Shown piece after piece: positions 1,376 to 64,000 of a stretch of DNA of 64,000 bases. The notes beneath the pieces were generated by a model, which worked only from the letters and a program-made list of their open reading frames with translations, did no database searches and was not told where the DNA came from. Position 1 is the first letter of the stretch. The number at the start of each line of letters is the position of its first letter. The stretch is from NCBI GenBank assembly GCA_905178155.1, contig CAJINV010000001.1, positions 12,073,832 to 12,137,831 of the forward strand, written 5' to 3'. Made by a program: the position numbers and the translations under genes. Origin of the DNA: Amoebophrya sp. A120 (lineage: Eukaryota > Protista > Dinoflagellata).

Positions 1376-1697
1376 TATGAATCGAAAATTCATTTGGCTG
1401 GGTCTGGAAGACTGCAGGTTTCTCTTCGATGCCATTCGTACATCGCCAAACATTCTGCTTTGCAGGAAGGAGGAGCAAAAGCTGTTAGTTTTTTTTTGGC
1501 GGAGATTTATGGATTTGTCATGCAGAATGGGCCTCCAGTGAGTGTGCATCAGTATCTGCATTCGCAAAGCCAAAAAGCCTTGCTAGAACCTGTGATGCCA
1601 CGCTATGCATTGTAGACTTTGTGCGGGGATGAGATGAAAATCCGCATCACACAAAGGATCTGCACTCTCCCAGACCCAGACATGTTTGCGGTGGATA
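1376..1697. mobile_element. Decayed family-A introner/MITE copy (322 bp)
   Basis: Starts TAT and contains ctgggtctggaag; ends ccagacccagacatgtttgcggtggATA; flanked by GCGTT (1371-1375) and GCGTC (1698-1702); internal ttgtcatgcagaatgggc matches other family-A copies. Host gene not resolved. Confidence 0.7.
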
Positions 1698-1993
1698 GCG
1701 TCTTCATCCTCGCTTCCCGGAACCGGGAATAAGCGATCGAGTGCGAATTATCCTCAATGAAAACTACGTACCCACCCCATTGTTCTCAAGACAGTTAGGA
1801 ATTCTGCAGGGCAAATCAAGAATCTCTGTGAGTAGTGCACCATTACAAGTGTGGGTCCACAGGATAGAAGACATGCTTCGCTTACGTGGCCGCATCACTA
1901 AGCCAGTTCCGTATTCTGATTCGAATTCCCAAGCGCTTGTGATTTCGATTCGAGTATGCAAGGGGCGCTTGTGATTTTGATGGATTGTTTTCT

Positions 1994-4900
1994 ATGGCGA
2001 ACTTCCTGGAACCTCTACAGAACGCGCGTCATGAGGCTGCGCGCCATGAGACTCATTCTGGGCCTGCAGACAGGTATACTATACCTGTCTGCAGGCCCAG
2101 AATGAGTCTCATGCCATCTGCGTCGAGCCGCCGTCTGCGGTAGGGCCCTGTGTGTTCGTGTTGCAACTCCTCTACGCAGGACATTGATCATCGGGTGGGT
2201 ACGTTTTTACCTAGGATGCGAATGGAGTGAACAACAGTCCGGAAGATCGGACTGCGAAAACGCGACGCCAAGGCGCCGCAGGACAAGAAGTCGCGCCGAG
2301 ACCGAACTGGGAAAGAGGGAAAGCAAGGGCGCCCTTTGTTTTTCGGGATGCAAAGAAGCAGACGTGGGAGGTGGCCGACGTGGCCAACGTGACGATTATT
2401 CCAAAGAAATCGAAAAACAAAAAGTCCAAATTGGCGGAGGAGAAGAGGATGAGGCTGCAGCAGTTCGCGTTGTGTCCGCCGAAAAAGTCAACGGTGCTCC
2501 TAGACAGGCGCGCTCTTGAATTTACGCCGCAGGATCTGGTACTGTGCAAAACGTGACTTCTTCGTCTCTTTGCGATGGCTTTGGCCAGGTTGATTCTCTA
2601 GTTGCTAACACAAGGGAGTTCGATCATTTTTTGCTAAGCCAGCCCTGCTGTAATCATGTAAATTTCACCCGCGTCGTGTAGTTGATTTTGTGCTATTCAC
2701 TGCTTTTGTTTTAGTTTTCATCGCTAATTTGCAACTCTAACTTCATGATACGGCAGGTACGCAACCTGCTTCCGCGCAGCGAGAGAGACCCCGCTGTCAC
2801 AACGAAGATCAAGACGCAGAATGTGCCGATAGAGCAAGTCCTGGGTTGGGGAAAGGGGACGCGAAATGTTGTCTCTGAGTATGAGCCACCAGATGAGGGC
2901 CCGGAGCCCGCCTCGTTTTCCTCGTTTACACAAAACCGAAAAACGGCGATGGCCCCAAGCGTATATGGACCGCTACGGCAATGCGACCACAAAAGTGACT
3001 TCATGAGTCTGAAAGAACAAGAAGAGTTCGAAAGGAGACGAAAAAGAAGGATGAAGGAGGTGTCCGCCAAATTTCCGACCGTTGACGTAAGGATTCCTTT
3101 TATTTCGCTTGTTTATGTTTTTCTTGCTGTAGAAAAAAAGTAAAAGAGTCTGAGTCGATATCGATTTATTATCGCCATTGTGCAAGCAAGGCAAAAGGAA
3201 AAGCAGTACGATAACCAGCTATAAATCGCAAAAGAGGCCAGGAGAAGCAACTGTAGAGTATTCGCGCTTAGTATTGATGAGTTCCTACTTTCATCAATTT
3301 GCAAAAGTAAAGACCGCATAACTTTTCAATACAGAGCACGAAGGAGATGATTGACAAGCTGTGGAGTCTCCGGCGCAGGCGCATGGACGAGATCTGCACG
3401 AAGAGGGGAAACGTTTTGACAGAAGAAGAGATTCGCGGCGTGCTGTGTCTTGTGCGCGAAATCATGCTGGATCAGCCCATGATGATCGAAACGGATGCAG
3501 GCGACATCAACGTCGCGGGAGACACCCACGGCCAATTCTTTGATCTTCTGCGGATTTTTACAGCGAACGGGCTACCGGGTGAAGCCAGCTACATGTTTCT
3601 CGGAGATTATGTCGATCGCGGGAGAAACAGTATTTCTAGAAATATGTGGGTCGATTGAATGTTCCTGCAAATGAAAAATCTGATTGAATGCTTTTAATTT
3701 GAAGAAGAAGAAGTCAAGTCATTTATTTTTGTTGCGACTCTGAAGTAGATGTAGAGGTCATGGATTTTATGCATCAATTGAATTTTTTCAGGTTTGGAAT
3801 GCATGTTGCTGTTGTTTCTCTACAAGCTGCGCCTGCCCGATAACATGTTTCTGTTGCGTGGCAACCACGAAGCGCCGGGCGTGAATCGAGTGTACGGCTT
3901 CTACGATGAGGTAAAGAGGAAGTACAACGCCGGCCTGTGGAAGGCCTTCCAGGACGTCTTCGCTGTGATGCCCTGCGCCGGGCTGATCGCGGGGAAGATT
4001 CTCTGCATGCACGGCGGAATTTCTCCGCGACTGACCAACTTGCGCGAAATCAACCAGATTCAGAGACCCTGCGGGGTGCCGGACAATGGACTGCTTTGCG
4101 ATCTCTTATGGTCAGACCCGGCAAACGAATGGCAGGCCGTAAATCCCGGGAAGGCGGTGAGCGCAAGTCGCCCACCGAATCCTGCTATGAAAACCCTGGA
4201 GCCTGTCGACGAGCACTGGGGCTTCAATGCAAGGGGGGTCAGCTGGATATTCGACGAGGTCGCGGTGCAGGAATGTTGCGACAGATTTGGCCTCGACTTG
4301 ATTGTTCGCGCACACCAAAAAGTCGAAGATGGCTACGAGTTCTACGCGAAGAAAAGGATGCTCACCGTGTTTTCAGCTCCGAACTATTGCGGCACCTTCG
4401 ACAACAATGCAGGGGTAAGCAAGTTAGTATGATCGGGAGTAATTAATATCTTCGTCTTCAGGCTAGTTTTTTATATATGCAGCGTAGTGCCCATGCCTTC
4501 AAAAATGGCAGACGATACCAGTTCTGGAGCCGAACAACGTCATATATCAATCAAAATCAAGTATGTTTAAGTTTATCAATTGCGCATATTTTTGCAGCGC
4601 ATGTTCGCCCGCAGGCAAGCCTTCAAATAGATGCGCAATTTCCCACAAACACATTGATAGGTTCTCAACGTGTCCCGGCAGCTGCGATGTAAGCTGACCG
4701 TTTTGGAGCCGGAGCATCACATTGGGAAGGGCAAGTTTCACACTTGGCCAGGAAAAGAGAGAAAGGCAATGGAGTTAGACGAGCTGACGCTTTTTCCTGA
4801 CACGGAGGACATTTTAGAGCGACTGAAGGAGGTGGAAGACGAGGATGCGCCGCCAGCGGTATCGCAGTGGTTACTTATTTGGTTCGATATTTGTTGATGC

Positions 4901-13021: not shown

Positions 13022-16000
13022 ATGCCTCGACGTAGCCAAGAACCCTGCGCGGAACCAGAGGGTGAGGACGGACAGTTCGACGATGAGGAGTTTGTTGGCA
13101 ATGACAACCGAAATTTGCAACGCGGACACCACAACGAAAATCCAACAACTACCGGAGCCGCAAGTGGGAGCCAAGCGACGTCGCGCTCCCAGCACCCGCC
13201 GACCCCGGAAAAGCCGATGCTGACCCTCGGCGCAATGTCGGACGATTCAGACTCCGAGGACGACGAGGAAAGGAGTGGCAACGGAACGAGTTCGTTGTCC
13301 AGCACCATCGGCTATCCTGTGCAAAAGTATCGTACTCGTAGTAATCGTAGTCATGCATTACAAATCTTTATCCCAAGGCAAAACAGCATGACAAATTCCA
13401 TTTGTCATGCTGAGCGAATTTGTATTGCAATTACTACTAGTACGATACTTTTGCAGTTCATATCGGCGATCCGCGTTCACGGCAGCGGCAGAACCGCGAG
13501 CAGAGGCGGTCGTCGAGAAACACGCGGAGGTCGCGGCGACATGAAGACGGACAGCAAGTTGCGCGCACGCGGAGCCGCGGGGACAAGCGCGCGGAGTGGC
13601 AGGTCTTGCACGAGCAAGAAGCCGCACGCTTAGCGAAAGAAGCACAGAAGGCGTTCCACAAGACTGCGTGCAAAGTTTTCCAAGCACTCATGCTCGCTTC
13701 CTGCCTGGTTTTGCTATCCGTCCTCGCCTACCACCAGTACCTGCAGCTGCGACAACAGGCCGCTCACGGGGAGAATTCTTTACCCGGCAGCGGTTCGGCA
13801 GTATTTCCAGTGGGGAAGGGCAGAAGCGGCGCGCGGGAGCAAGCGCGAAGTATCGTCTTGGACGATCGCAGCGACGTTGGCAGTGACACTGACGACCCGC
13901 AAGAACGGGGAGTACAGAATTCCAAGCGCGAAAAGATTCGGCTGTCGCGGAAATTCGAAGAGCGGTCGCGCGGTTTCTCTACGGATCATGTCACTCGCCG
14001 CGCATCATCGTCCTCGACGGGGTCTTCCCGCCTTCCGCCCGACCGACACAGCGGCCGCAACTCCCGCAGCAAGGGTGGGGCGACGCGACGCCACTCCTCC
14101 CCCGGTACTGGTCGCCGCCCGTCCCGGCGCAGTGGTCGCGGCTCGGCGAACTGGAAGCGCGGCGCGTCCGACGGTGCAGCTGGTACTACCACGGTCGCGT
14201 TGGTAAATGGAACTATTGCCGGCGCTTCCGGGACGAGACCGCCACTAGATGACGGCGCGGCCTCCAGTACGGACGGAGGATGCAACAGTGCGGATGACTA
14301 CTCTTCTACAGAAGAGGACGACGACACAACTGACTCGGACGTGGACTCGGCCTTTGCTGGCGCCCAGAATGAGGACGCGTCCGACCTGGAGCTGAACACG
14401 ACCGCGACCAGCCGCCGGACGAGCAATCGCGGCAACTGCAACATGTACGCGAACAAGAACAAGCGGCCCCGGCGTACGTCGAAGAAGTACGTGCACTCAA
14501 AGACGAAAAACTCGGTCGTCCACAACTACTTCACCATTCAGCACATGAGCGACGAGGCCGGACGCTACTTCTTCGGGAACGCCGCACGAGCGGCGGGTTT
14601 CGGAGGCGGGGGCGGTAGTGCGGGTGCGCAATCATCTTCGCAGGCCGCGCCAAACTTCCAGTACACCCAGCAGCCAGGGTCGTCCACGGGACGAAAGAAC
14701 GCTGATGAACACGACAGAAGTGCAACGCCGGGCGATGGTGGCGTGGACGCGGGCGTCCCAACAAGAACACCCTCCAGTGGAGCACAACAACATGACAGTT
14801 CGTCAGTTGTGTCCTCTTCCGTAGGTGGCAACAGTGAAGATGTGCTAGCACGGAGGAATCAGCAGGAGCTTTCGGGAGTTCAGAATATGCGGGCTAGCAC
14901 GCCCGGAGGTGCTACTCCTTCGCAATCAGAAGTAGTCGAGTCGGGTTCAGGGAACGGGGAGACATTCTTTTCGGCCGCAAGCTCGTCGATCGGCGGTGAC
15001 GACCAAAGTGGATCCGGGCGAGGGTCGCCAGCCTTGGAAGACCAGATTTCGGACACGTCGGATGCACGGAACAAAAAGAAGCGCGCACAGCAACTGGAGA
15101 AGCAGCTGCAACTCGCGCTACAGCTCGGAGATACGTCCAACCAGCCGGCACGGACGAGCGCAACCTTGCTGCCCCTTGCGGATTATGTTCCTGGGTACTT
15201 CAGCTTAATACTTCTTGCGCCATAGGTTTAGATAGATAGAAGTAGAAGATGAAAAACGCATCTGCAGAATCCATCCATGATCGCTAAGATTCATATGTTC
15301 ACTTTTGGTTTCGACTTTTTTCCGCCCAACAAGCTAAAGCGACAGCTAAAGCAGATGCACTCTTCTTTCATGAACACTAAAGTAATTCCGAACCTCAACA
15401 GAAACGGCAGCAACGAGGTTGTCATGCCTGCTCCTGGAACACACAACTTCACGCATTCGGGCGCAATCGTTCCCGTAGTTGTTGCTCAGCAGACTGCTGA
15501 GAGTCTCGGATCTTCGTCCGCAGCCCCAGCACTGCGAAGCGGCCAGCTGGCCCTGGAAGACGCACCGCCAGCAGCTCCGCCGTCTCCCGTGGGAGTGCTA
15601 GATTCCGCGAACCCGCCGCAGCCGCCAGCATCTCCGGTGGGGATACTTGACACCTCTGGTGGATCTGCAAGCTCTCAACGACCAAATGCAGGCAGCTTGC
15701 AGCATTCAGCACATCTCTTCTCATCAATCCCGCCGCAACCGAGTGCGCCACTTCCACTCGTCGATCCCGCTGAGGTTCCCGTTCCGCTTTCCCGGCCAGG
15801 GGAGGTGGATGCTGATTTGGTTGAGACGAGCGATGCCGCTGCGGATAAAGAGCCAGCTGATACTTCTAACACCAACAAAGCGGATCTATCTAGGGAAGCT
15901 GCTCGTGGTCCAGAGGATGGCACTAGTAGTACCGGACTGGAGGAGGTGCCGTCCGCTACTCCGCTTCTTGACCAGGCCGCACCTTCGGAAGGCGAGGGAA

Positions 16001-19000: not shown

Positions 19001-20772
19001 TTTTTAGGAACAGCACAGACCACGATGAAACTGACGTGGGACAGAAGCAAGATACACCCGGCAGCTCTAGCACCGGCCCTGCGTCCGCCTTTGCACCGCA
19101 GCAGGAAGCGATGCCCCCTCCGCTGTGGGCCGGAAGTGCCGCGAGCAAGGTCCGCAGTGGTCACCGACTGGACCAGAACACCTACTGCGTGACCGGCGAT
19201 GCCTCGCCGGACCAGTCCCGCGAAGAGTTGCGTGTGCCGAATAAAGCACCGTCGCCAGAGAAGATCCCCTTTGTCGGCGCCAGCAGTATCAATAACTTCA
19301 ATCCGCCGGAAGTGCTGTCGAAGACGAGAAGCAAGAAGCGCTCCACGGGGGTCGACATCGAGCAACTCGCCAAAATCGATTTCTCCGCGGCGAACAGTGC
19401 CATCCTGGGCACGTCGCCGGAGCAAATTTCCTTCTGGAAGACGCTGCTGTTAGAGGACCCCCAGGAGTGGGACTCGCTACCGGCCGTCTCCTATCAAATG
19501 TAAAAATGTCTGGGTCTGGAAGAATGCATGTTTGTCATGCTTGTCTGGCATGACTCTTAAATCTGTCATGCACGTTACCCAAGAGCTGCGTTTTTCTGTG
19601 ATGCAGAAACGCAGTTTGTCATGCAGAATAGGCAACACCTACACCTAGAAGCTCAGAAACTTGTCATGCTGAGCCAGCATTTGTGGCCTCATCATGAGAC
19701 GCCGCCCAGCATCACAAGTTTCCAGATCCAGACATTTTTACATTTGATATCTCCAAACCGGGGCTGAAGCAGAGTCAGCTGTACGATCGACTGCTCTACT
19801 ATGGAAGCGTCAGGTTTGAAATCGTCAAAGTTCAAATAATTCGTAATGCATAAAATGCGACACAAAAAGTGACTCTATTGCAGAGGACCCACGAGAGGCA
19901 GATTATAGTCCTGGCAAGGGTCAAAAATTGGCCTGCTAACTAGCATGACAGAAAGCAGCTCTTTTGCTCTAAACCGCATGACAGACTCGCTTCCAGGATT
20001 GGGAAAATTTGTCATGCACCGACTACAAACTGTAGGTCTAACTGGTATCCGTTTTATGCATGACAAACTATTTCAACTTTGACGATTTCAAACCTGACAC
20101 ATCCATATCTACCAGTGCCACCAAAAGGAAACCGAGCGGTTTTTCCGCATGGAGCCGAAGAAGCAGGAAACGGGGGCCGCGGGCATCCTGAATGCGCTGT
20201 TCCAGGTGGGGGGCGCGGGCGCCCACCGCAAACCGGGGAGCGAAAGAACCTGCACCATGGTAGACGCGCGGGGGCTGCCAAAACCACTGAAAAATTGGGT
20301 TCCGCTCAACGAACAGTACGATGCCTCGTTCACCGTGCCGATTGGCCACGACCAAGCGATACTCGAACCCTCCGGCCTGGGTCACGATCACCAGTACAAA
20401 ACTAAGTGGAACATGCAGATCGAGCGGAACCCACTCACAGGAGGCAGTATTGTTCTGTTGATTTTCCTATTTTGGTTTCAAAGACGTTTGTAAGTAACTT
20501 CTGCTGTGAATCTGAAGGCGTTTTCAAGAGCAACGATAGGTATCAATGAAGGACCACAATCATGATCATGCATAGGCAAACCCAAACGGATGAAAAGTTT
20601 TTTCCGCGAAATCACAGGTCCACGCGTTGTTGTGAAGCGGGAGAGCGTCAGCGAAACCGGAGACCGCAAGGAAAAGGCGTACACTTTGGCACAGCCCCAA
20701 GAAGCCGCGCGCTTGGCGCAGAAGCTCAGCATTCTTCTGAATAACGAATATAGGAATCTCCAGGGTATGTAA
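13022..20772 (+). CDS. Very large low-complexity hypothetical protein with one N-proximal transmembrane segment; multi-exon
   Basis: ORFs 12953, 13606, 15277, 20149 and 20590 join in frame through non-canonical inserts (13313, 19492, 19800) and GT-AG introns 15195-15401 and 20447-20575. Hydrophobic ALMLASCLVLLSVLAY near 13684-13731. No recognised domain; both ends uncertain. Confidence 0.65.
13313..13462. mobile_element. Family-B introner (150 bp), TSD TCGGC
   Basis: TAT...ATA; inner IR tgcaaaagtatcgtact/agtacgatacttttgca; TCGGC at 13308-13312 and 13463-13467; removal gives STIG-DPRS in frame with ORF 13606. Confidence 0.92.
19492..19749. mobile_element. Family-A introner (258 bp), TSD TCTCC
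   Basis: TIR tatcaaatgtaaaaatgtctgggtctggaa / ttccagatccagacatttttacatttgata; TCTCC on both sides; removal eliminates the stop at 19503 (LPAVS-KPGLK). Confidence 0.93.
19800..20107. mobile_element. Family-G introner (308 bp), TSD TCTAC
   Basis: TIR tatggaagcgtcaggtttgaaatcgtcaaagtt / aactttgacgatttcaaacctgacacatccata; TCTAC at 19795-19799 and 20108-20112; removal gives RLLY-QCHQ in frame with ORF 20149. Confidence 0.93.
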
Positions 20773-22435: not shown

Positions 22436-25400
22436 ATGAGTAGGGCACAGAACAACACTCTTTCCGGGCCGTGTTCCAGCCGACGGCTGGCCGCGCACAC
22501 TTGTTGTCCAGTACAACAACTGTGGCCATTTTTACTACTTGTCTTCCTCGTCTTCGCACCAATGCCAACAGTCGCGCAGCAAGCTCTGACCATCGAGGAG
22601 GTGTCCTCCCGATCGCCGTACGTCAACGCTTTTCCCGTCCACTTGCGGTTGACGTGGCAAACCAACATTCCGACCACCAGTTTGGACGTGAAGTGCTGCG
22701 TGACTGCTGTGAAGGGCACCATGGACAGCTCGCGGACCGAGCTGTACCTGGACCTGCGCACCGCCAACAACGGCGTGTCCTTTGACGCCGGGCAAGCGAA
22801 CTGGCACTTTCTGCCCCGGATCCCCTACTACCTGAGCGACAACACCACCCAGGCCACCGCGTTCCAACACTGTGGGTTGCTGGACCCGAGCATCGAGCTG
22901 TACTTCGACAGCGACAACATCCGGCAACTGCGGAATCCCGAGATCTCGGTGTACCAGTTCACGATCCCCGGGTCGCTGATTACGGCGAACAACCCGACCC
23001 TGGTCTTCGACTTGCGGAACGCGGCGAACCCGCTGGAGGCAAACGCAGACACGGCCGAATTCGCCTCCATCACCGTGTCGCACTCCAATCTGCGCTCCGC
23101 GAGCGGGCGGCGGCAGAACGTGTACCACTGGGCTTCGATGGAGGTGCTGAAGTTTCAGGTGCAGCCGAACTTCTACGCGCAAACTTCCGCCACGTTGGAG
23201 CTCACCTTTCGGTTGCGGGGGTTGAAACAAAGGAAAAGACTGCCGGGCAACAGCTGGATCTCCCTGAACGCGCCGATCGGCTGGAGGTTTTCCCTGCAGT
23301 CGCAGATCGTGGTGTACCAGCCGGACCTCACGAGCGACAGTTTTCCAGTTTTGTTCACCGACTGCGGGAGGATCGGAAATGTGTGCACGGGCGGGTACCT
23401 GGGCGCGCAGTTGTCGGCGACGTACGAGTACAACAACCGCGATTGGGAGTCGCAATTGCGGAGCCTCGTGTTTCCGAACTCTCCGCACGTCGACGCGGCG
23501 ACGTATTTCGACTACAGTCAGAACACCAGCCAGGTGTACGTCCTTGGTCAGGCGGCCGGGAACGAGGTGGTTACGTACGTGAATACGACCTCCTGGGACA
23601 GCTTGCCTATCAAATGTAAAAATGTCTGGGTCTGGAAAATTGCGAGATTTGTCATGCAGATTTTCCATGACCCATGAGGTCTGGAATGCGGGGCCTAGCA
23701 TGACAGAGTCTGTGAGGTCTCTGCCATGCCTATCCCGCATGAGAAACTACCTCCCAACTTGGTCGAAAGTGGACAGCTTTTGGCACTCATGCAACACAGA
23801 TTTTGACTTTTGCACTATTTGGATTTAGCATGACTTTTCCAGACCCAGACATTTTTGCATTTGATATTGCCCATGGCGGACCCAACCGCATGGTCGGCGG
23901 TGCCGGCGCAGGCCCGGTACAAGCGGGCGGTGATTCAGGATGTGAACACGGGGGATTTGCAGTTCTCGGTGGACGACACGGTGCTGCTGCGCGTCAGGGT
24001 GACGAACGTGGAATCTCCCGGGAACAAGGCAAGCAACGCTGCGGACGAGTTGGCGATGAACACGTGGACCTTTCACTACGGGTTGATCCAGTCCACCGCA
24101 CTGGACAAGAGACTGGCCACGGTCACGGTACGGGCGCGCGACGTGATGCTGGAGGCGATGGAGGTGAGTGTGAAGGTGAAAGGCTTTCAGTCGTCCGCAA
24201 CGACGCCCGATGCCTTCACCATCTCCTCGGCCCCCTATGCCTCACTGGTGCAGCTGGTTTTCACCGTGTCAAAAGCAATCGCAACGAGCAGCAGAAAGAA
24301 CTACTTCTATCTGTGGACGCCAGCGGTTTCTGAGCAAGGAAACACGTGGAAATTTTCCAGCAGCAATTGCAAGGGCGATCTCGGGGTACTGAACTGCTAC
24401 AATCTGGATTTTGCCTCGGCGGGAACGAATTCGTTGGTCCATTCGCTGGCGACGAGCTACTTCACGGTCTTTGGCGAAACAGTTTTAGATACGACGTCTG
24501 GAGGAAGTGCGTTGCAGTTTTCTATGTTCGCGACAAGCCCGAAACCTGGGTACAGTTCAAATGCGAATTGGCGGCTCTCTTTGTCCGAGGATGGGACGAC
24601 TTTCGCGAAAATTTTGAATCACGCCAACGGGGTTTCGCACGCGAGTCTGACGCTCGTCGAGCTCCAGGATTTCAACGCGGTCAATTTGAATTTCATCTCG
24701 ATGCACACCAGTGCCGTCACCCCGCCCCCACTGTCGTTCGCGCCGAAGTTTAGCGTGTCCGCGATCCCGGCCATTCTCACCACCAGCACCATTGTCGAGT
24801 TCCAGTTCCAGCTGCGCAAGTTGGACTTGGCCAGAACGAGTGCGCGGGCGACGTCAGTAGAAGCCACCATGACGGGATTGCGGCTCACGGGCCCGTGTGA
24901 AATCAAATCCTACAAAAATGGATTCAACTTAGCCAAGGTGGAAACCGGAATCGCCGATTCCGGGCACACGCTTTTTATTCCAATGGCGCACGTAAAATTG
25001 AGCAGCAACAACGATGCTAGGATTATGGTAGAAGTTGAGGTGTGCGCCAGTGCTTTGGCGCCAGCGAATGCAGTGTCTCTTGGGCAACCGGATTTTGGAG
25101 CAGCAGTGGGAACTGGAAACGCGTTTTTGTACACAAACGCGGAGGTGGCGGGGAAGTGGAATCTAGAAGTGATCGGAACGGGCAACGCGGTCCTGGATCT
25201 CGCGACGGTCGCACATTTTTCCGTTGCGACGCACGCCTGGGACCAGCGGTCCTCTTTTTCGGCCATTTCGGAGAACAGGGTAGTCTTCCAAATCTACCTA
25301 CCCGCCACGACGTCGCTAGACCCACTCACGTTCACGATCCGCGTCAACGGCTTGACCCTCTCTGCCTGCACCCTGGACCGGGTCCCCGGATCCGTGTCCG

Positions 25401-37100: not shown

Positions 37101-38368
37101 GGTAGTGGTGAGCGAGCCAAGGTAATTGCTCCCGCTCTGCGAAAAAAAATCAGGATACCATTCGAGAGCGAGGAAGCGCGGGAGCTAAACAAATTGATTT
37201 TCGAGACAATATACTTCGGCGCGTGCGAGGCATCAATGGAGCTGGCAGCAAAGAACGGCCCGTATGAAACATGGAAGGGTTGCCCGGCTGACAAAGGTAA
37301 TATGCAAGCTTAAGAATTTTGCTTGAGAAAGAAAATCATAATTTGCTCACCTCGTCCGCAGGGAAATCTTAGTGCTGCTTTTATTGAAGTACTACAAACT
37401 AACGATGATCTTTCTGTCACGCACCCATATCCAACCTGACAATCGAATCGCGACACAGGTAAACTTCAATACGACCTGTGGGGCGTGACACCAACGCCAT
37501 TGCACGACTGGGCGGCTCTAAAGGAAAAAATTGCGCAGCACGGCATGCGCAATAGTTTACTGCTTGCCCCGATGCCAACCGCCTCCACGGCACAGATTTT
37601 GGGAAACAACGAATCTTTTGAGCCATACACGCAGAACATCTACGTATTGAAGACGTTTTCCTATAATTTTTTGACATTGATGACGCCGTGCACGTGCTGC
37701 ATTTGATGGAAAACATTCAAAAGTGACTATCGTCTGCTGGATTTCTCACCTCGCGATAATTTTATCAGGTCCGTCGTGTGCTATCCGGTGAATTCGTGCA
37801 AGTGAATCGGCATCTTTTGAAGGACTTGATTGACAGGGGGCTCTGGAACCAGGACATGAAAACAAAGCTCATCGCGAACAACGGGTCGGTGCAAACGATT
37901 GCAGAAATCCCATCCGACATGAAGGAAATGTACGTGAAAAGATGTTGTTGAAGATGAAGTCAAAGTTTTTAACAGCGTGGATGCCTTTTGGGTTTTGTGA
38001 AGCCGTTCTGATTTCCTACTAATTATTGTAATTGCGAAATAAACAAAAACCACCGCAGATACAAAACGGTCTGGGAGATCAAGCAGAAGCGCATTCTCGA
38101 ATTAGCAGCCGACCGCGGTGCGTTCATTGACCAGTCGCAGAGTCTCAACGTGCACATGACCGGTTGCACGACCCAGAAGCTTTCCTCGATGCACTTCTAC
38201 GGCTGGAAGCTCGGTCTCAAGACTGGGCAGTACTACCTGCGAACGAAGGCGGCTGTGGAGGCGATCAAATTTACGGTCGATGTTACCGACACGAAGAAAG
38301 CCCAGGCAAAGCTGAAGGCGGAGCAGGATGAGAAGAGCAAATACGAGTGCGTGGGGTGCGGCAGCTGA
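34170..38368 (+). CDS. RRM1: Ribonucleoside-diphosphate reductase large subunit (class Ia)
   Basis: ATP cone [49 protein letters not shown] and C-terminal ECVGCGS. GT-AG introns 34448-34602, 34947-35097, 35523-35647, 35904-36079, 36948-37153, 37297-37458, 37644-37768 and 37930-38058, plus three non-canonical inserts. Confidence 0.97.
35142..35292. mobile_element. Family-D introner (151 bp), TSD CCATG, in RNR
   Basis: TAT...ATA; IR aaatttcccgtacacgtacaa / ttgtacatgtacgggaaattt; removal restores [20 protein letters not shown]. Confidence 0.93.
36176..36325. mobile_element. Family-B introner (150 bp), TSD GGACC, inverted orientation, in RNR
   Basis: tatgcattgcaaaagtaacgtact...agtacgatacgtttgcacagcata; GGACC on both sides; removal restores [17 protein letters not shown]. 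Confidence 0.95.
36374..36609. mobile_element. Family-C introner (236 bp), TSD ATCCG, in RNR
   Basis: 39-bp TIR with 1 mismatch (tatggcgttctcaaacgttaca...); ATCCG at 36369-36373 and 36610-36614; removal restores [12 protein letters not shown]. Confidence 0.96.
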
Positions 38369-42600: not shown

Positions 42601-45328
42601 AGAAGGAGAAGCTCACCGGGGCACAGTTGTTTGAAAATTTGAAGAGGCTGCTCATCAAGAAGTATCGGTCCCTGTCCCTCGCGTGGAAAACTGCCTTCGA
42701 CGTGCAGGGCCGAGGCCACTGCGGGTCGCAGCACTTTGCTGCGGTGTGCCGCGGGTTGGGCTTCGAGGGGGCGAATAGCGTATGGCGGGAGGTGGTGCAG
42801 TGGCGCTCAAAGAGCGGTTTGTTGACCTACGCGGATCTCGACCCCGAGGGTGCGCAACTGATCTACGAGTTAAAAGCCAGGATGGTTGACAAGTAAGTAC
42901 ATGCTTGCAATAGACGAAAATTGTAAAGTTATGCGTGAGACTGCTCCTTCGTTCTAGAAGTATCGTGGAAGATGTTTATGTTGATCAACATGATTTTTGA
43001 TCAACATGATTTTTGATCAACACGCTCGTGCACCCCAATAAACAAGGTATCGCGACTTCGTCACTGCCTGGGTCGTCGGTATCGATATGGATGGCAGCAA
43101 CCGCGTTTCTGAGGCCGACTTTGTGAATACGGTATCTAGTGGCAAATTTGGTGACTTTTCGGAAGTGGAATCGCGGCAGCTGTTCCGTTTACTGCGCTCT
43201 GCGGACAAGAAGTTCCTGCAGCTCCACGATATCGACGTCAAAGCGGGTCAACAGCTGATGGACGGCAATCTGCCTCCCTATGTGGACCAAATGAAGGCGG
43301 AAGCGAGGAAGCAGCTCAGTCGCGGCATGAGCCGGGAAAGGAGAACCGAGTTTTTGGTCAGGCAGAATTCGCACGAGGTATCTTGTTATCATTCACCTGA
43401 TCGTGTCATGAGCCCATAAGCGCGAGTACCTTCTTCTTCTGTGTCTCTCTGCCTTTTGTTTTCGCTGTGTTGATGAAGTATCTATTGAATGTTGTCGCTG
43501 GATTCCATTCTATTTGCACTAGATCCACGCCTTCCGGACGGAGTTTGCGCAGCACAAGCGGCAGCAGCTGAACGCTAAGGATGAACGGCGGCAGAGCCGG
43601 GACATGGGGGCGAGTTCCAAGGAGGAGTTCCTGAGCTTTCTGAAGCGCAAGTACGGAAACCTGCCCCGCGCCTGGCGCACGGCCTTCGACACGGACGGCA
43701 ACGGGAAAGTTTCGCAGCAGGAGTTCTTCAGTGTCTGTCGACACCTGAACGCCTTTATCGGCGACGTGAGCAAGTTGTTTTCCGAGTTCGACGTGGACCA
43801 GAGCGGCATTTTGTCCCTCGCGGAGGTCGACCCGGCGGCGTGGCGGATTTTGTCCAATTTTGAGGACAAGTGTCTCGAGGCGGTGGCTGCTTCCTCCTCG
43901 CGGGGGGCGGTAGTGGTCCAGCCCCCCTCTGCGTCCACGACGATTGGCGGTGCGCAATCCGGGTCCGACGCGTCGGAGCCAAGCGGTGCAGCTGTTCCCC
44001 GTGGGCGCACGGGAGCGTTGGCGAAGTGGTGGAGCGTGTTCTTCGCCGATCAGGATTTTGCGGAGCACGACCTCCTGCGCCGTATGCAGGACAACAGCGC
44101 GGTGACGGCGACAATTCTGAAGATCGATTTCACCAGGTTCCAGGCCATCTGTGCGAAGGATTTGAATTTGCACAACGAAGTGACGGTCAGGAAGCTGTTT
44201 TCCTACTTTGCAAAGGAGGAGGGATCCACGTTTCTGACCGAAACGGATTTTAAGGCGATGGACATCCCGAAAATGCGGGACATGCGCGAGCGCAAGCGTC
44301 GTAGCAGCAACGCATTTGGGGGCGGCGCGCGATCTCGGAGCACGTCGCTCCAAAGCTCAAAGCAGGCGAGCGCCAGTCCATCCGAGAACGAGGGAGCCAG
44401 CAACGTCGTGAGTCCTGCGGTCCCGGAGGAGGGGATTGTCGGTAGTACAGCCGGGGCCGCGGCCACCGAAGTGTTGAAGGCCGCAAAGCCGGAAGAAGCG
44501 AGCAAGTCGGAGGAAGAAACAGATGCATATCACAAGAAAAAAGTGTTACAGTTACACATTTGTTGGAGTTTCTGCATCACAAATTTTCTCTGTGTGGCAG
44601 GGAAAACTTGTAATGCGAAGATCATTAGGGAAAACAGGAAGGAAACGAGGCTCCCAAGCATTTCCTGCATGAGAAAGGTTATCTGTGTTGCTGGTCTTGC
44701 AACACAATGTGTAACTGTAACACTTTTTTCTTGCGATACTGCAGATGCCGACCACAGCAGCAGCACAAGCGCCGAGGCAAGTGGAGGTTCCAGCACGGAG
44801 CCGGAACCTGCAGCGGATCAGGTCGGTCTTGCAAAAAAGAATGACGCCGATGTTCTTGGAGCGAGTGCCAGTGAGGAAGAAGATCCTATCTTGGGAGCCT
44901 CACAGGAAACCGCAGAAGAGGAGGAAGTAACGAAACCAGCAGGAGAACAGGATCCAAGTGCTGCTACAATAGACAAGGCTGAAGAATCTTCTGCTCCGGA
45001 GGGCGGACAGGAAATTATCATTCCTACTCGATCTGCAGCGAAAGATGACGAAGAGCCGCCAGCAGCAGTAGAGGCTGCGACCACCACGACAACGTCCGAC
45101 ATTGACGAGTTTTGCGTGACCTTCGTCGAGGCGAATGAGGGTGACTGCAGCCGCGCGTGGGGCAACCTCTTCGGCACCGACGAGGATGTCGAGGAAGCCA
45201 AGTTTGTCGACTTTTGCAAGGCCGTGCGGGCGAAGGGGTTCCAGGGCAACTTGAAGCTTCTGTGGACCAAGTTCGGTGGGACGGATACACTCTGCCCCGG
45301 TGACATGGAAGAAAAGCTGTTCTTCTGA
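39673..45328 (+). CDS. Coiled-coil plus multiple EF-hand-like repeat protein; multi-exon
   Basis: Repeated units KKYRSLSLAWKTAFDVQGRG, DMDGSNRVSEADF, KRKYGNLPRAWRTAFDTDGNGKVSQQEF and FDVDQSGILSLAE; N-terminal heptad-rich exons; three introners and several GT-AG introns. Not every internal junction was verified. Confidence 0.7.
39793..40054. mobile_element. Family-A introner (262 bp), TSD GCAAA
   Basis: Family-A TIRs with the right end mutated to AAA; GCAAA on both sides; removal gives KDSK-KWTEL. Confidence 0.92.
40092..40241. mobile_element. Family-B introner (150 bp), TSD TTTTC
   Basis: tatcctgtgcaaaagtatcgcact...agtacgatgcttttgcatttcata; removal gives SVFS-ELQQKDQLE. Confidence 0.92.
42981..43022. 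repeat. 16-bp tandem repeat (about 2.6 copies) in an intron
   Basis: ttgatcaacatgattt repeated at 42981, 42997 and 43013. Confidence 0.8.
44528..44738. mobile_element. Family-E introner (211 bp), TSD ATGCA/CTGCA, stop-free in frame
   Basis: 33-bp TIR tatcacaagaaaaaagtgttacagttacacatt with 1 mismatch; AT-rich island inside ORF 43604; element plus TSD is 216 nt. Confidence 0.9.
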
Positions 45329-47230: not shown

Positions 47231-47326
47231 TTCACCCCCGTTGCCGCAGGCCGGGAGCTCGCGCTGGTGCCCTGCCCTCCCAAGAAGTGGCAACACATTC
47301 ATGGGCCCCGCGCGGCTGAAGTACAT

Positions 47327-47439
47327 AACCAGTAGCGCCGCCTAGGCCTCTGCGCGGGGCCAACCGCAAATACGCGGCTGGGCCAACCAGTAGCGCCGCG
47401 TGGGCCTCTGCGCGGGGTCAACCGCAAGTACGCGGCTGG
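47327..47439. repeat. Two tandem ~58-bp copies
   Basis: aaccagtagcgccgc...ggcctctgcgcgggg.caaccgcaa.tacgcggctgg occurs twice. Confidence 0.75.
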
Positions 47440-51800: not shown

Positions 51801-54346
51801 TTTGGTTTTCTTTGTCCGGTGTGGTTCCTAGGGGAGGGGGCCACGTGGTGTGGTTTGGCTCATGGGGCCGCCTCTTCGTGGCCATGAGCCAAACCCCTCG
51901 GGCCCCCGCTCCTTTGCATTTGCCGGGGGCATCGCGCAGCGGCCCCGCTTCGGGAAATCAGGCACGCGCGACGCCGGGGCGTTTTGGTTTTCCAACCCAC
52001 ACCCGCGGCCCCGGGCGGCTAATGATGAGGGTAGTCCCGGCGGTAATTTCCGGGGTTAATCTCACCACAACGAAATCGGGAAGGTTTCGCTGGTTTTGAA
52101 ATTAAACCAAAAATCAGCCCTCAGATTAGAATATGAATTAGACCACAAATTACCCCCAAAACCCACGAAATTAAACTCCGCCCGGAAAACAATCACTCCG
52201 CCGGGCCACTTGGTGCTCAGTCGCTCGGTGCCGTTGGTCATTGGTTGTCTTGCTTTTTCTCGACACGCCGCCCGCCAGCAGTTCCCGCCCACTTGTGTTT
52301 TTTGTGTCTTTGGGTGGACTCCCTCCGGCCGCTGCCCTTTTCAATTTGCCCCGAAGATTGGGGGGCGGCGTTCTGGAAACCCACAAACAGAAAGCCCGCC
52401 GGGGCAGTGTTGCGGCCCCCGTTTTGTTTTGGTGGGGGCCTCCCGTGCGCAGGCTCTTTCAGCCGGCCCCGGGGTCTTTCTTCTGTGCCGGGCCACCCTT
52501 CGGCGCCTTGCCCGGCGCGCGCCTCCCCTCATGAGGGGCGCAGGGGGCCCTACAGGGTGGCGCCCGTGGTGGCGATGTGCCTTCGAAAATATGGCGGTAC
52601 CCCCGGCGCGCCTCCTAATCTGGCCCCTTCGGCGCCTGCTCCCTTTCGCGTTGGGGATTAGCCACCATTCAGCCAGGAATTAACGAAATAGCTTGCCACG
52701 GGCCGGCTGCCTGACGCAGGCAGAGGCCGGCCAGCGGCAGCCGGCACGCACGCACCGCAGGCAGAGGGAGACGGTTGGCACGCAGGCAGAGGCCGGCCAG
52801 CGGCAGCCGGTTGGCACGCAGGCAGAGGCCGGCCAGCGGCAGCCGGCAGGCAGAGGCTAGAGTCGGCCTGGCAGGCCGGAGCGGGGCAAGCAGCTGGCGC
52901 GGGGTTGTCGAAAGCCGGCGCGCGAACGCGCAGGCACAACGCCCCCACTGACATCGGGCCCCCTCTCCCTGTCTCCTTGCAGTTTACTCAGTCACCGACG
53001 TACCGGGCGCAACCGACAAACCCAAGCCCAGGCGAGCCCAGCAGGGCTCGCCCCGAGGCTTGTTTAATATTAAAGAAGAGTTACGACCCACTAGCATCCC
53101 TAAAATCCTTTTGCCGGAGCCGGACGAACAAAAAGTATAAGTCGACGAAAATGCATAGTGTATTATACGGTGTGCAGTAGATGAAGTGGGACGTAGTTGA
53201 AACTGAAAGTAAGAACGATGAACAATCGAAGTGAAGTATTAACGGTGAAGAAACTACATCTACTCGTTTTACCAATCTGTCATAGGTGAAGCCGCACTTC
53301 AAGGTCCTGGTCCCCATCATTCCAGAGCAGCCGAACGGCCCTTCAGGGGCCTCGCGAGCTGCCATAGCCATGTCTGCTTACGGGACCAACAACCCTGGCT
53401 CCAAACTGCTGGTCCTCTCCGACGCCGATATATCACAAGAAAAAAGTGTAAGTATACACTTCTGTGTGCAGCAACATCACAAACTTGCTCTGCATACCGG
53501 AGAAAACTTGCAATTTAGAGTTCATGAGAAAATAAACCACGTCTGAAGCTAGGCTCCTCGTGAGCGTATCCGGCATGACAGAGCTTATCTGTGTTGCCTG
53601 GAATGCACCACCATGAGCAACCGAATGGCATTTTTTTCTTTGCATAAACCATCGAGCGCATGGACTATTTTAGCTTGAGCGGAAATCGAGCGACCTTCAA
53701 ACAGTCCGATCCGTATGCGGTCTTTAGAAGGCCTCCACCGATCACGCCTCCGATCGGCGGTGGAAATCAGAATCCCTCCCAACCGGCCTCGAGCCCCCCG
53801 CATTCGCAGCCGGACTGGAATTACAGTGCTGGGCAGTACGGAGTACACCACGAGGAGGTACCGGTGGGAATCGTCCTGGGGCTGGTATTTGGGTTCTACC
53901 TGCTGCTGGGCTTGGGTATTTGGGGCTGCGTGTGCTGGACCACGAAAAGAAACCGCGAAAAAGGCGAGCGAGAACTCGCGGAGCAGAAGAAGTTGGCGGA
54001 AGAGAATCGGCACTTGCTCTACAACCAGTACCACACCATGAACGCTTTCAGCAACCCCTACGAAAACGGCTTCCATCAGGCTGCTCAACAAGAAACCACC
54101 CCTGGATCGACAGATGTTGGCGCCACAAACAGTGGAGCGGGAGGACCAAAAAGTCAAAGCAACATCCATACCTTTGGCACGCTCCAGGGCGGCGGCGTAA
54201 GTGGGGTGCAGCACCAACAGCAGGCCGCGCAGCAACCGCTTGCACAGATGTACGGGGGTTCGAACAACAACATTTACGGCTTCAACAACAGCGCACTGCA
54301 ACAACCCGCGATCATCAACTACGGCGCTACCGATCACTATGCGTGA
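48879..54346 (+). CDS. Membrane-anchored peptidase S51 (dipeptidase E/cyanophycinase)-like protein; multi-exon
   Basis: Signal-like LAGLLFLLVTDATVA; VLNLGGG, FAYSAGAVVIG and LKLLGPYQ|VKPHF across GT-AG intron 50289-53285; C-terminal TM VGIVLGLVFGFYLLLGLGIWGCVCW. Other probable introns 49272-49387, 49711-49972 and the insert at 53431. Confidence 0.6.
50373..50662. repeat. Foldback-like structure: ccttaag units on the left, cttaagg units on the right
   Basis: About 4 copies of aact(c)nttaag at 50373-50422 and about 8 reverse-complement-like ct(t)taaggg units at 50563-50662. Confidence 0.7.
50770..51470. repeat. GC-rich minisatellite, ~37-bp unit ggcaggtaggacagaggccagcggcagccggcccgcc
   Basis: About 9 near-identical units at 51060-51400 with degenerate flanks; a related block lies at 52700-52880. 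Confidence 0.88.
52700..52880. repeat. Second block of the ggccagcggcagccgg minisatellite
   Basis: gcaggcagaggccggccagcggcagccgg occurs three times. Confidence 0.8.
53431..53646. mobile_element. Decayed family-E introner (216 bp)
   Basis: Left end tatcacaagaaaaaagtgt is identical to the 44528 copy; shared internal aaaacttg and ttatctgtgttgc; right end catttttttctttgcata; TSD not recognisable, but removal of 221 nt joins ORFs 53286 and 53660. Confidence 0.75.
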
Positions 54347-57779: not shown

Positions 57780-59300
<1,521 letters not shown>

Positions 59301-60166: not shown

Positions 60167-63100
60167 ATGGCTGATTCGGCGAGTGTAACGTCGACGGTGA
60201 CGGCGTCAGCGCTGAACACGCCTCGGGGGAAACACGATCCGAATAAACCCGACTATGAGGTGCAGACGCACTCTGGCGTTCCGAAGGAAAAGAAAAAAGT
60301 CGTCAACTATGCGGTGGGGACTACAGGTAATGCTAGCTCGACTAGCGAGATTTGCTCCTACAAGGACGAAATACAGGCCTTGCCCTTGTATCCACACGTT
60401 GACATCATGAAGTAGGCCGAGATGAAGTGAGTTCAAAAGAGATTTTTTGTATCGTTTCACATCACAACATTGACATTTCCAAAAAAAACAGTCGGGCACC
60501 GTGAGACCTTCGGCGACAACCTGCGACTCAGTGCAGGGTACCCGCGGATTTTCTTCCAGACCACGTATCAAATGTAAAAATGTCTGGGTCTGGAAGAATG
60601 CAACTTGTGATGCGGATTCTGGAACAGGCCAAAAATCTGTATTGCGTAGTCAGCAAATTGTGCCAGATTTTTGTCTCCAGAAGTGGGCATTTGTCATGCG
60701 GAATAGGCATGGAGAAGCTCAGCTGCCACAGAGTTTGTCATGCTCTGTGTGCATTCCAGACCTTTTTGTAGATGTAAAAAATGCATGACACATGTCTGAT
60801 TTCTACCAGACCCAGACATTTTTGCATTTGATACCACAACGCAGGTGACTATAGAGCTGATGGTGGAGCGGCCGGCCGCGGTGATCTGCCAGTGCGTGGA
60901 GGTGCCAGACTCGGCACGGAAGCACGACGCGTACCAGTACGCGGATGCGAGTTTCGAGAAGTCACAGACGGTGACGATACGGACCCTAACCCGGGAAAGG
61001 GACCTGCTGATTCAGCGTCTGAGGAAGAAGATGGAAAAGCCCGGGCTCGACGACGCGCAGGACTCCGATGAGGACGAGGAAGTTCTGAAGCGCGACGTCA
61101 CGGACACGGGGCGGGAGAAGCCCTACGTCAAGCCGATCAGGTTTGAGGCCAACCTGCACGGCTCGCACGCCCGGCCGAAGTTTTACGAGCAGTTTCACTT
61201 CGCCACGCCCATGCTGGTCCGCTTCCACGCCGGGCACGTGCCGAAGACGCTGCCCCTCGTCGGGCTCAAGGCCGACGGGCAGTACGAGTTCTACGCGACG
61301 GTGATTGACGACTCGCTCGTTCCGTTCTACCGGAAGATGGTAAACGAGACCATTCTCGCTTCCTGGATGGTGCTCACCGCCTGGGAGGTGGATATGGCCT
61401 CCGGGACGAACAAGAAGAACCAGAAGCAGAGCGAGGGGCTCGTGTCCAAAGCCGGGCACCAGCGGATCAGCAACATCAAAAAAGCCTGCACGGAAACGTC
61501 CACGAAGTTCCCGTTCGCAGCGGACCAGCGCTACCCGTCCCACCCCCTGCACACGGAGCTGTCCTCACTACCGCAGCCCTGGAACCTGGAGATGATGTCC
61601 GAGAGTTTGCATTTCTACGTGAAGCACGGCCGGGATTTGAGTCCAGCGAGCAAGGCGAAAAACAAGGACGCGGACGACGACCTGCCGCCCGGGTTTTTCT
61701 CGCGGAAGGGCGTTGATCCGGAGCAGCTAACGACGCTGGTGTCGTTTGCGCGACTGCGGTTCGAGACGTTGTCGAAGCACCCGAAGTTCTTGGACATCAG
61801 CTTCGTGCCCAACGGGGTACGGTTTCGGCTCGACCGCCCGAACTGCATGGTCTACTGGGTCCCGGTCAACCCGGCTCGGGACGAGATGGCGCAGAGGGTC
61901 CGGGCACAGAACGCGACTGGAGGGGTCCTCGCAAATAAGAGCGCTTCATCAAGTACATCGGCTCTGGTCCCCCCGACCGCGAGTTCGGTGGCTGCAAAAA
62001 AGATGAACCAGACACATTTAAACGAGCACGACTTCTCTAATACAGGGATGGCGCGAACAAGACGAAACGACGAACTGGATTCACTCATATCATCCCCCGG
62101 TTATGAGACGACAGAATGTCCTTTGCTCTCCCTCCCCCCCTCATTTGATGTCATGCGAGTTTAAAAGTTGTGATGCAGATGAAGCTGCTACGAAACTCTT
62201 GTGATGCTGTCTCAAAGACGGTGCCGTTCAAATCAGGGAAAGAGACTCACTTGTGCCCCCTCATACCCGTGGACGGTCGGACAAGAACGTGTTCGATGAG
62301 CTACTGGAGCAGGACGAGGAGGAGAAGGACCGCGCCGCTGCCGCGGACGACGCGGAGAACGCAAAGTCGACCGCAAACAAAGAGGACGCCGGCTCGCAGG
62401 CTACGAGCCCCTCCGCCGTCTCCTCCTCGCCGGCTGCCCCCTCGGCGCCGGCCGCACCGGCGCCCGTGCCCTACAAGGCCCTGGATCCGAGACTGAAGCC
62501 CTACGCACTCGCGGCCGCGGGCGATCTGGCGGGGACCGGCGCCCCCGACAGCGACGACGAATTTGCCGTGAATAAAAGCCTATCAAATGCAAAAATGTAT
62601 GGGTCTGGAGGAATGCAACCTGTGATGCTGCGTTTGGATTCCAAAAAAATCTGTATTGCATGAGCAGCAAATAAGGGAGTGCAATTTTTGCTACGGGAAG
62701 AGGGCACTTGTTATGCGGAATAGGCATCAAGAAGCCCTCAAAAAATCTCTGATGCTAGGGCATGCATCACAGACGTCACGGCTCATTTAAAACTTGCATG
62801 ACAAGTCTCAGAATCTTCCAGACCCAGACATTTTTGCAGTGCATAAAGCCCGAAGGAGCAGGCCCCCGACCAGCACTTCGAAGCGAGTCTGATCGTCCGC
62901 GATAGGGCGATCGCGGCGGGGCACTACCTAAACGTGACCGGGGAGAAGGGGTTCATCACCCTCCCGCCCGCCTTCCAGGGCCGTCCGCTCGACTTTGTCG
63001 CGGAAACCATCCCCGACACGACGCGAGCGAAGTCCGCGGTGGAGGTGCAGCGACTCGGGCCCGGCAGAGACAATTTGAAGGACGTAAAGATCCGGAAAAT

Positions 63101-64000
63101 GTTTGATCCGTTGTTCTCCTCTCTCCGGCCGCGCTCCATGATGCCAAAACCGTACCGCCTCTTCTACCAGCAGCCGCAAGTGCCGGAAGAAGAGCTGGAA
63201 GCCACGATATCCTCGCCGTTGCGCACCAGAACTTCTTCCGGAGGTGTTGGCGGGGGACCAGCAGCAGCCCCCGGTGCAGCTGCCAGCAAGCTGTCCCCGT
63301 TTTCAACATCTTCGCCGTTCGGCAGTCGGCGCGCCACGAGGAATTCAATTTCCGTGAGCGGCGCCGGCCCCGCGGCCGCAGACAAAAATACAACTCCCGC
63401 GGGGAAGTTTATCGACCGAAAAGACGCCAAAGGGTATTTGGACACCCCGCAAAGCGCGTACGCCCCGGGCGCCGCGGTGCACTTTGAGAAGACGCCGCAA
63501 AACTTGCAGCGGTTCGCGCTGCGCCGCACCGACATCGTGAGTGGCACGCCGGATGCGGAGCTGGTGCAGACCTTCGGCCCCGACGTCGTCCCGGAGGTCT
63601 TTCCCTACTCGCGGAAACTCGTGTCGGTGTCCGAGTCGCTGAAGACCAGCTACGGCCGTCCGCCGGAGCACATCAAGATGCAAAGCAGCTTGGACGTGGA
63701 GCTGCAGGAGCCGCGGCCCTTCGTACCACAACATACGGTCATCACGGACGAAAATCGGTACGAAAACGACGGTATGCATGGCAAAAGTATCGTACTAGTA
63801 TAAATCGCATTACAAATTTGCTCAGCATGAGAAATGCAATTTTTCATGCTGTTTTACCTTGGAACGGAAATTTGTAATGCATGACTGCGATTACTACCAG
63901 TACGATACTTTTGCACAGGACAGACGGCGAGGACCCGAACGCGGTGAAAAAGGCGAAGCCCTACTACTACCAGCAGCTGCAGTATGGGAGTGTCAGGATC
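60167..64000 (+). CDS. Hypothetical protein, 3' end outside the window; carries five introners
   Basis: GT-AG intron 60327-60491 and inserts at 60566, 62102, 62581 and 63773 join ORFs 60167, 60845, 62253 and 62934 in frame; strong GC3 bias; no recognised domain. Confidence 0.7.
60566..60833. mobile_element. Family-A introner (268 bp), TSD CCACG/CCACA
   Basis: Family-A TIRs; removal of 273 nt gives RIFFQTT-TQVTIEL. Confidence 0.92.
62102..62265. mobile_element. Degenerate family-F introner (164 bp), TSD CCGGT/CCCGT
   Basis: tatgag...ctcata ends; internal tgtcatgc and two tgtgatgc; removal of 169 nt joins ORFs 60845 and 62253. Confidence 0.78.
62581..62845. mobile_element. Family-A introner (265 bp), TSD AAGCC
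   Basis: Family-A TIRs; closely similar to the 39793 copy; removal gives VNKS-PKEQ in frame with ORF 62934. Confidence 0.93.
63773..63922. mobile_element. Family-B introner (150 bp), TSD GACGG, inverted orientation
   Basis: tatgcatggcaaaagtatcgtact...agtacgatacttttgcacaggaca; removal gives END-GEDPN. Confidence 0.92.
63983..64000. mobile_element. Probable left end of another family-G introner, truncated by the window
   Basis: tatgggagtgtcagg resembles the TIRs of the 19800 element (tatggaagcgtcagg and tatggatgtgtcagg). Confidence 0.55.

Follow-up and report, generated by a model that had tools for sequence, protein, structure and literature searches.

It is already known that, in the dinoflagellate Amoebophrya, more than 60% of the introns supported by RNA sequencing (RNA-seq) in strains A25 and A120 are non-canonical (PMC7789003). 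In A120, the introners described in that study carry inverted repeats that open with TAT, seven less-conserved nucleotides and at least three A, and are flanked by direct repeats of 3-5 nt, given as 5 bp in the legend of Fig. S19; in the sister strain A25, the repeats begin with TTA and two purines, and the nine commonest of the listed splice pairs all begin with TT. The border position of these introners was left unknown there, and nearly all spliceosomal proteins were reported to be present in Amoebophrya, with U1 small nuclear RNA (snRNA) undetected. Another study described families of terminal inverted repeat (TIR) DNA elements of 150-320 bp in A120, among them family 38, which carries integrase-like open reading frames (ORFs) and was annotated as 'Ginger, 5-bp TSD, TA/TA termini', TSD being a target-site duplication (PMC12130899). 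Here, a stretch of 64,000 nucleotides of Amoebophrya sp. A120 (assembly GCA_905178155.1, contig CAJINV010000001.1, positions 12,073,832 to 12,137,831 of the forward strand), hereafter the window, was found to carry 17 such elements, and for all ten inserts that transcript data covered it was verified that they leave the transcripts of expressed, intact genes precisely, each together with one copy of its duplication. The system is among the oddest in eukaryotic splicing, yet it is already published for A120, both as a class and in the organism itself; a preliminary description of the window, made from its letters alone, had recognised the class as known and underrated its closeness, since the same TAT elements with 5-bp repeats had been published for this very strain.

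The elements were detected in a scan for TAT...ATA pairs that have flanking 5-mers, and their boundaries were then fitted. Under a strict rule (TAT...ATA ends, a 5-bp repeat with at most one mismatch, at least 10 of 15 complementary terminal positions, 100-420 nt), 13 matches were obtained in the window, against 0-1 per sequence in 30 random sequences of equal dinucleotide composition. All 16 inserts of the preliminary description lie where it had placed them, and a 17th, at 1749-2218, had escaped it because of an altered last letter. The window elements sort into seven families, as had been proposed, and five of these have relatives in a second assembly. The duplication is perfect in 11 of the 16 listed inserts (12 of 17 when 1749-2218 is counted), has a single mismatch in four (1376, 44528, 60566 and 62102) and is absent in one (53431). 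The TAT...ATA ends that had been ascribed to the whole list hold for 14 of the 16, since 39793 ends in AAA and 63773 in ACA. The window elements lack the GT/GC...AG ends of U2 introns: in all 17, no slide of the boundary that preserves the junction reaches GT-AG or GC-AG, and GA-AG is possible only at 36176, in agreement with the earlier account. No Rfam match was found in the window. The elements, which are listed without strand, and the gene used as a control are given below with the basis on which removal was judged.

1376..1697: TIR element in the first exon of a gene with a PP1-like phosphatase domain; duplication GCGTT/GCGTC
1749..2218: 17th element; perfect duplication CGAAT; 3' end ATG (last letter A>G)
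13313..13462: element of the 150-nt family; duplication TCGGC; frame test only
19492..19749: element of the ~260-nt family; duplication TCTCC; frame test only
19800..20107: 308-nt element; duplication TCTAC; frame test only
23608..23866: element of the ~260-nt family, inverted relative to 39793 and 62581; duplication TTGCC; frame test only
34170..38368, + strand: ribonucleotide reductase large subunit gene, with three elements plus ordinary GT-AG introns; control gene
35142..35292: 151-nt element in the reductase gene; duplication CCATG; absent from complementary DNA (cDNA) by exact length
36176..36325: 150-nt element in the reductase gene; duplication GGACC; cDNA length accounting
36374..36609: 236-nt element in the reductase gene, directly 5' of the conserved CSNLCTE; duplication ATCCG; cDNA length accounting
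39793..40054: element of the ~260-nt family; duplication GCAAA, 3' end AAA; cDNA length accounting
40092..40241: element of the 150-nt family, inverted relative to 36176 and 63773; duplication TTTTC; cDNA length accounting
44528..44738: 211-nt element; duplication ATGCA/CTGCA; cDNA joint from 44523 to 44740
53431..53646: 216-nt element without duplication (CGATA/AACCA); deposited protein P0121
60566..60833: element of the ~260-nt family; duplication CCACG/CCACA; joint from 60559 to 60833 in four of four runs
62102..62265: 164-nt element; duplication CCGGT/CCCGT; joint from 62099 to 62269 in four of four runs
62581..62845: element of the ~260-nt family; duplication AAGCC; joint from 62574 to 62845 in four of four runs
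63773..63922: element of the 150-nt family; duplication GACGG, 3' end ACA; joint from 63767 to 63923 in four of four runs (60-letter side; the stretch between is marked 'not known')

The 17th element contains an internal perfect palindrome with 34-bp arms (2045-2113) and no strong copy of the GCATNAC motif treated below, and ends resembling its own are found on a 457-nt element of the second assembly (locus L023). The ends of 53431-53646 look like two different members of the 44528 family, and its right flank matches the left at one of five letters; speculatively, it is possibly a recombinant whose 3' end arrived with intronic flank letters of another copy.

Removal was followed in runs X3-X6, from two samples of one study, which were taken as cDNA because their contigs skip GT-AG introns; these contigs may underlie the deposited proteins, so that cDNA and protein evidence are not independent. 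At all ten sites covered by this test, the element plus 5 nt was missing from the cDNA contigs, as seen in five cases by direct joints and in five by length accounting, the other seven elements lying outside it. Within 57000-64000, all four elements were skipped as element plus 5 nt in four of four runs and at full contig depth, beside three GT-AG joints, and run X4 joins 44523 to 44740 (216 = 211 + 5) even though element 44528 is in frame. In the reductase gene, where both kinds of intron coexist as had been stated, the X4 contig over 34943-36610 has 662 letters, exactly the exon sum left by taking out three introns and three elements with 5 nt each, and the length of a second X4 contig predicts a start at 39584 with 39793 and 40092 gone, in agreement with the 76 letters obtained from the depth bin. 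Translation of the joined reductase meets no stop and agrees with the deposited protein at 539 of 539 compared residues, and the element junctions are gap-free in 92 (35142), 94 (36176) and 94 (36374) of 94 full-length homologues; the orthologue of A25 is 86% identical, and its protein is uninterrupted. Additionally, exon pieces of 114, 130 and 501 amino acids match proteins labelled Amoebophrya sp. A120 at 100% identity. Splicing at cryptic GT/GC-AG pairs close to the three elements of the reductase gene was considered and rejected, as it would insert or drop 1-12 codons within conserved sequence and misfit the 662-nt count. Thus, at the sites covered, neither retention nor cryptic GT-AG splicing, which the preliminary description had named as outcomes that would overturn its proposal, was borne out.

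The reading frames agree with these joints. Taking out the element plus 5 nt opens a long frame across 15 of 16 junctions, which is the number of in-frame joins that had been claimed, and the sixteenth, 1376, joins an open frame too once 1749-2218 is also removed, judging from the sequence only, since it lies outside the coverage of cDNA and deposited proteins. Conversely, retention of the element leads to a stop or a frameshift at 15 of 16, the exception being 44528, which is in frame without a stop. The same 150-nt family is cut out in both orientations, as 36176 and 63773 lie in one direction and 40092 in the other (with 36176 and 40092 judged from lengths), so that, for this family, orientation is irrelevant to removal. 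The raw RNA runs X9 and X10 gave no reads on host exons. In X9, 91 reads were placed, nearly all of them on the terminal repeat of the ~260-nt family (39792-39824) with a different flank and interior, which hints at a divergent strain with the same terminal repeat.

A mismatched duplication shows which of its two copies supplies each letter of the mRNA, and the position of the cut could be narrowed on this principle. At 44528, letter 1 comes from the left copy, allowing 1-5 left letters; at 62102, where just two letters are ambiguous, letter 3 comes from the left copy, allowing 3-5; and at 60566, letter 5 comes from the right copy, allowing at most 4. The deposited protein P0121 fits at 53431 only the removal of the element plus 5 nt with 3-5 left letters kept. 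If one register serves all the elements, the cut falls after letter 3 or 4 of the duplication. Since 53431, which has no duplication, still fits the removal of the element plus 5 nt, it is suggested that the element ends set the distance, not the matching of repeats; a matching duplication seems to be dispensable, on the basis of the annotation of P0121. Mismatches between the two copies number 11, 7, 4, 4 and 5 at letters 1 to 5, a position bias that is not significant (p = 0.23). The published splice-pair counts were rejected as proof of the register, because they depend on the aligner at ambiguous borders.

A larger sample was taken from the second assembly, in which a 22-letter terminal pattern matched 154 stretches, kept as 153 loci; the 79 loci listed are all on contigs JACKZZ01..., which belong either to the same strain or to a sister strain. 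When the duplication was ignored in the search, 302 TIR pairs were returned, 282 of them of at most 420 nt, and a perfect 5-bp duplication flanks 202 of these 282, with other lengths at chance; the duplicated letters show no preference. Among 18 family representatives, TAT(C/G) opens 36 of 36 ends (such ends being required for the detection of the second-assembly elements), and A stands at positions 11-14 in 23-29 of 36. Codon use, which was right on 17 of 18 window chunks, served to orient 205 elements from 71 loci; of these, 3 show a change in the first two terminal letters at the 5' end and 11 at the 3' end (p = 0.057), and adding the window (0 versus 3) brings this to 3 versus 14 (p = 0.013). 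At letters 3-4 of the duplication, AG outnumbers every other pair, with 23 cases against 14.2 expected (one-sided p = 0.016). In locus L002 (4609-4758, transcript-oriented), the sole element with its first 5' T altered, T>C follows a G and would form a GC-type donor under a cut after letter 4, in a single case.

Compared with the published A120 introners, the window elements have in common the TAT inverted repeats, the 5-bp repeats, RNA-seq support, genes that mix in GT-AG introns and a mean length of about 240 nt (PMC7789003). The pattern of TAT, seven looser bases and a run of A is found here, most ends fitting it, and so are the direct repeats, the absence from transcripts with non-GT-AG borders and the repeated families. 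In contrast to the 3-5 nt repeats of that paper, the duplication here is strictly 5 bp and the cut is narrowed to letter 3 or 4. The searched text of PMC7789003 does not mention how the elements are oriented, nor any subterminal or internal motif, lariat or template switching, and cut mapping, orientation, a dispensable duplication and an internal motif were not found in the literature searched, which did not extend to subscription papers, to figures or to supplement files 13-14 of PMC12130899. Family 38 is a published candidate for an autonomous relative, but it lacks the usual Ginger termini; splice sites are tabulated in that source as annotated, with no common register (PMC12130899). In contrast to its integrase-like ORFs, no ORF of transposase length was seen in the window elements or in the long elements of the second assembly.

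Taken together, the inserts are non-autonomous DNA-transposon copies of the published A120 introner class, with inverted TAT...ATA ends and a 5-bp duplication of free target sequence, and we lean, with slightly better than even confidence, to the reading that the spliceosome of the organism itself removes them, with its demands for the G of GT and for AG loosened and the terminal hairpin as its guide. According to this reading, the inverted ends would pair in the pre-mRNA and hold both exons together; an end-joining stem is predicted in six of six folded elements, two of which (53431 and 63773) are frayed at the ends. Cutting after letter 4 would yield the intron N-UAU(C/G)...(C/G)AUA-NNNN, preserving at the element 5' end the U at +2 and the A at +3 of GUA donors, and the 3' cut would be set 4 nt past the stem rather than at AG. 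The relaxed spliceosome is preferred because the letter-4 cut makes the intron begin with N-TA-T, like the GTA donors of the genome; among the 19 ordinary introns picked from the window, 17 have this GTA start. The TTA repeats and TT splice pairs of A25 would again place U at +2 and A at +3, which lends weak support, as aligners may favour such a placement. Two further tests lean weakly in this direction, namely the fewer changes of the first two terminal letters at the 5' than at the 3' end and the AG excess at duplication letters 3-4, and the presence of nearly all spliceosomal proteins with U1 snRNA undetected is in keeping with it. A comparable case was reported in the tunicate Fritillaria borealis, whose adapted spliceosome excises introns that derive from transposons and lack GT-AG ends (PMC11282704); both systems comprise insertions resembling miniature inverted-repeat transposable elements (MITEs), with TIRs and TSDs, which are removed despite non-GT-AG ends, although the Fritillaria ends are fixed (AG-AC, AG-AT) and TIR-derived, whereas here both cuts lie inside the free target duplication (PMC11282704; bioRxiv 10.1101/2025.08.15.670264).

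Several points weigh against this preference for the spliceosome. The fixed register stands on three cDNA junctions and one deposited protein, with one case per letter, and letters 3 and 4 are inseparable. A stable stem must open for snRNA pairing. The asymmetry between the 5' and 3' ends was tested post hoc, does not reach significance when the second assembly is taken by itself (p = 0.057; in the perfect-duplication subset, 2 versus 8, p = 0.11) and depends on orientation by codon use with the accuracy given above; moreover, terminal letter 3 shows the opposite trend, with 7 changes at the 5' and 3 at the 3' end. At +1, G is about as frequent as at other positions (67 of 205), a GT/GC-AG reading at any slide is possible in only 17 of 205 elements, and the published splice-pair tables hinge on how aligners place ambiguous borders. 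The TA ends could merely reflect transposase chemistry. Finally, euglenid introns of like build exit as circles, not lariats (PMC11282704).

The latter introns provide the model for the strongest alternative, which is nevertheless judged rather unlikely, namely that an endonuclease and a ligase independent of the spliceosome recognise the terminal stem and cut with a fixed stagger, 1-2 nt before and 3-4 nt after it, as proposed for the nonconventional introns of euglenids. An end-joining TIR stem (predicted for the window elements), TSD-like repeats, non-GT-AG borders and ordinary introns alongside are shared with the latter, which differ in a CAG/CTG stem motif at +4..6/-8..-6, pyrimidine-purine borders, circular products and an unrelated lineage (PMC11282704). 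Here, the duplication letters have no pyrimidine-purine preference and the stem starts with TAT. In addition, a 5' TA that is modestly better conserved than the 3' TA and the mild AG excess at the predicted 3' end would be unexpected for a purely structural cutter, and no candidate enzyme was found, though no search for one was made.

Much less credible is an artefact in which reverse transcriptase jumps across the hairpin between the direct repeats, or a polymerase slips in vivo, with no splicing involved. A hairpin with short direct repeats is a known substrate for template switching, but the cited case affected about 30% of transcripts (PMC2923612), whereas here each joint stands at full contig depth in four of four runs. 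All the RNA evidence comes from cDNA contigs, in which rare forms are dropped; against an artefact, retention breaks the frame at 15 of 16 inserts, among them the three of the reductase, which in its joined form aligns to 92-94 of 94 homologues without gaps, the skip is exact at 62102 with its two ambiguous letters, and the deposited protein implies a skip at 53431, where there is no duplication to jump between.

In DNA, the elements were found to be kept. This was verified in the contigs of one run (X1), possibly the window's own source, in which rare forms drop out; in these contigs (33900-35168, 35267-36205, 36582-39819 and 40215-44554), with a depth of about 42-45, the flank continues 26-30 nt into each element without a branch at the duplication, so that no common empty-site form is present at the duplications in this sample. 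Since cDNA lacks the elements while DNA keeps them with no empty-site branch, removal acts on RNA. The internal eliminated sequences (IESs) of ciliates are transposon-derived and TA-bounded, interrupt coding exons and are removed from DNA, whereas the window elements stay in DNA, without the empty sites expected of IESs, and have a 5-bp duplication. Excision of this kind at some stage or in some nucleus, with transcripts made from empty-site templates, recalls the transposon anatomy with TA ends and faces a single DNA run whose contigs lose rare variants, but it is the most improbable reading of all, because those contigs enter each element from the flank unbranched, because the transcripts draw, in one and the same register, on both the left and the right copy of the duplication, and because no germline/soma split is known for Amoebophrya. 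Therefore, from the earlier proposal of a second, structure-guided pathway on RNA or DNA, removal at the RNA level stands, with the hairpin as the likely guide, ciliate-like DNA excision falls, and the register fits a relaxed spliceosome at least as well as a separate pathway.

An internal motif, GCATNAC(A)(A/G)(A/G), is present in at least two copies and in mixed orientation in all 18 families (252 elements). Ten of 49 neighbouring copies, counted on one representative per family, are spaced 31-33 bp apart, against 2.1 expected and a maximum of 9 in 2000 random placements. Its density in the window is 21.3 per kb inside and 0.35 per kb outside the elements, a difference of about 60-fold obtained with a matrix trained on these elements; in the second assembly, the densities are 20 and 3 per kb. 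The spacing of three helical turns and the mixed orientation suggest a DNA-binding protein such as a transposase, and the motif would thus be a binding site of the mobilising enzyme rather than a splice signal. A role as branch point was rejected, as no copy at threshold lies on the sense strand of 62102, which is nevertheless removed, and 1749 lacks the motif. The combination of TIRs with a target duplication of 4-6 bp, typical of Ginger or integrase-like MITEs, is found here, and the mobilising enzyme would probably be an integrase-like (Ginger-type) transposase supplied in trans. No ORF of transposase length occurs in the window elements or in the longer elements of the second assembly (longest 118 amino acids), no autonomous element was found among the four longer perfect-duplication elements (457-972 nt) in the 153 loci, and no viral contig matched the TIR pattern.

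Regarding the surroundings, all genes seen in the window are on the + strand, matching the co-oriented blocks reported for the genus. At 1368-12007, the PP1-like phosphatase domain is followed, in the same fused protein, by a unique tail of great length. Its deposited version, P0123 (2320 amino acids), begins at an internal methionine at 3968, inside the phosphatase domain, and probably lacks the 5' exons bearing elements 1376 and 1749; no deposited protein covers the 1376 junction, since P0123 starts downstream and a representative search gave one weak unrelated match. Judged by eye from their motifs, 23873-28702 presumably encodes a membrane protein of some length that includes a PARP-like catalytic region, and 30073-33014 is taken to be a DHHC palmitoyltransferase-like gene. 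A GC-rich intergenic block of repeated CAGGGGGCCCCC units lies at 46640-48600. The 3-kb GT-AG intron at 50289-53285, which starts with GTT, is dense in GC-rich repeats of 33-46 bp, the other introns of the window being mostly of 125-262 nt. The intergenic block of 1.7 kb at 55243-56954, which is bounded by a perfect 21-bp inverted repeat (TGGTAACC...GGTTACCA) and contains a 109-bp tandem array and GC-rich palindromes, is a different transposon-like element without a clear duplication.

A single hidden rule could join these observations, and it is put forward tentatively, at somewhat less than even confidence: a spliceosome without U1 would read an N-U-A donor supplied by the transposon (N-TAT in A120, TTA in A25) and place the 3' cut at a fixed distance beyond the hairpin without an AG, so that any insertion, in any orientation and at any site, would be removed seamlessly, and the GCATNAC array phased at about 32 bp would serve a single mobilising enzyme for all families. 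The register, the independence from orientation, the dispensable duplication and the phased motif make the mechanism directly testable. Because mismatched duplications mark which copy of a letter reaches the mRNA, existing RNA-seq data can fix the cut genome-wide, and a search for lariats gains a predicted 5' end. If the N-U-A donor and the hairpin ruler hold true, thousands of annotated borders would be corrected, and it would become clear how a spliceosome can neutralise transposon insertions whatever their sequence or orientation.

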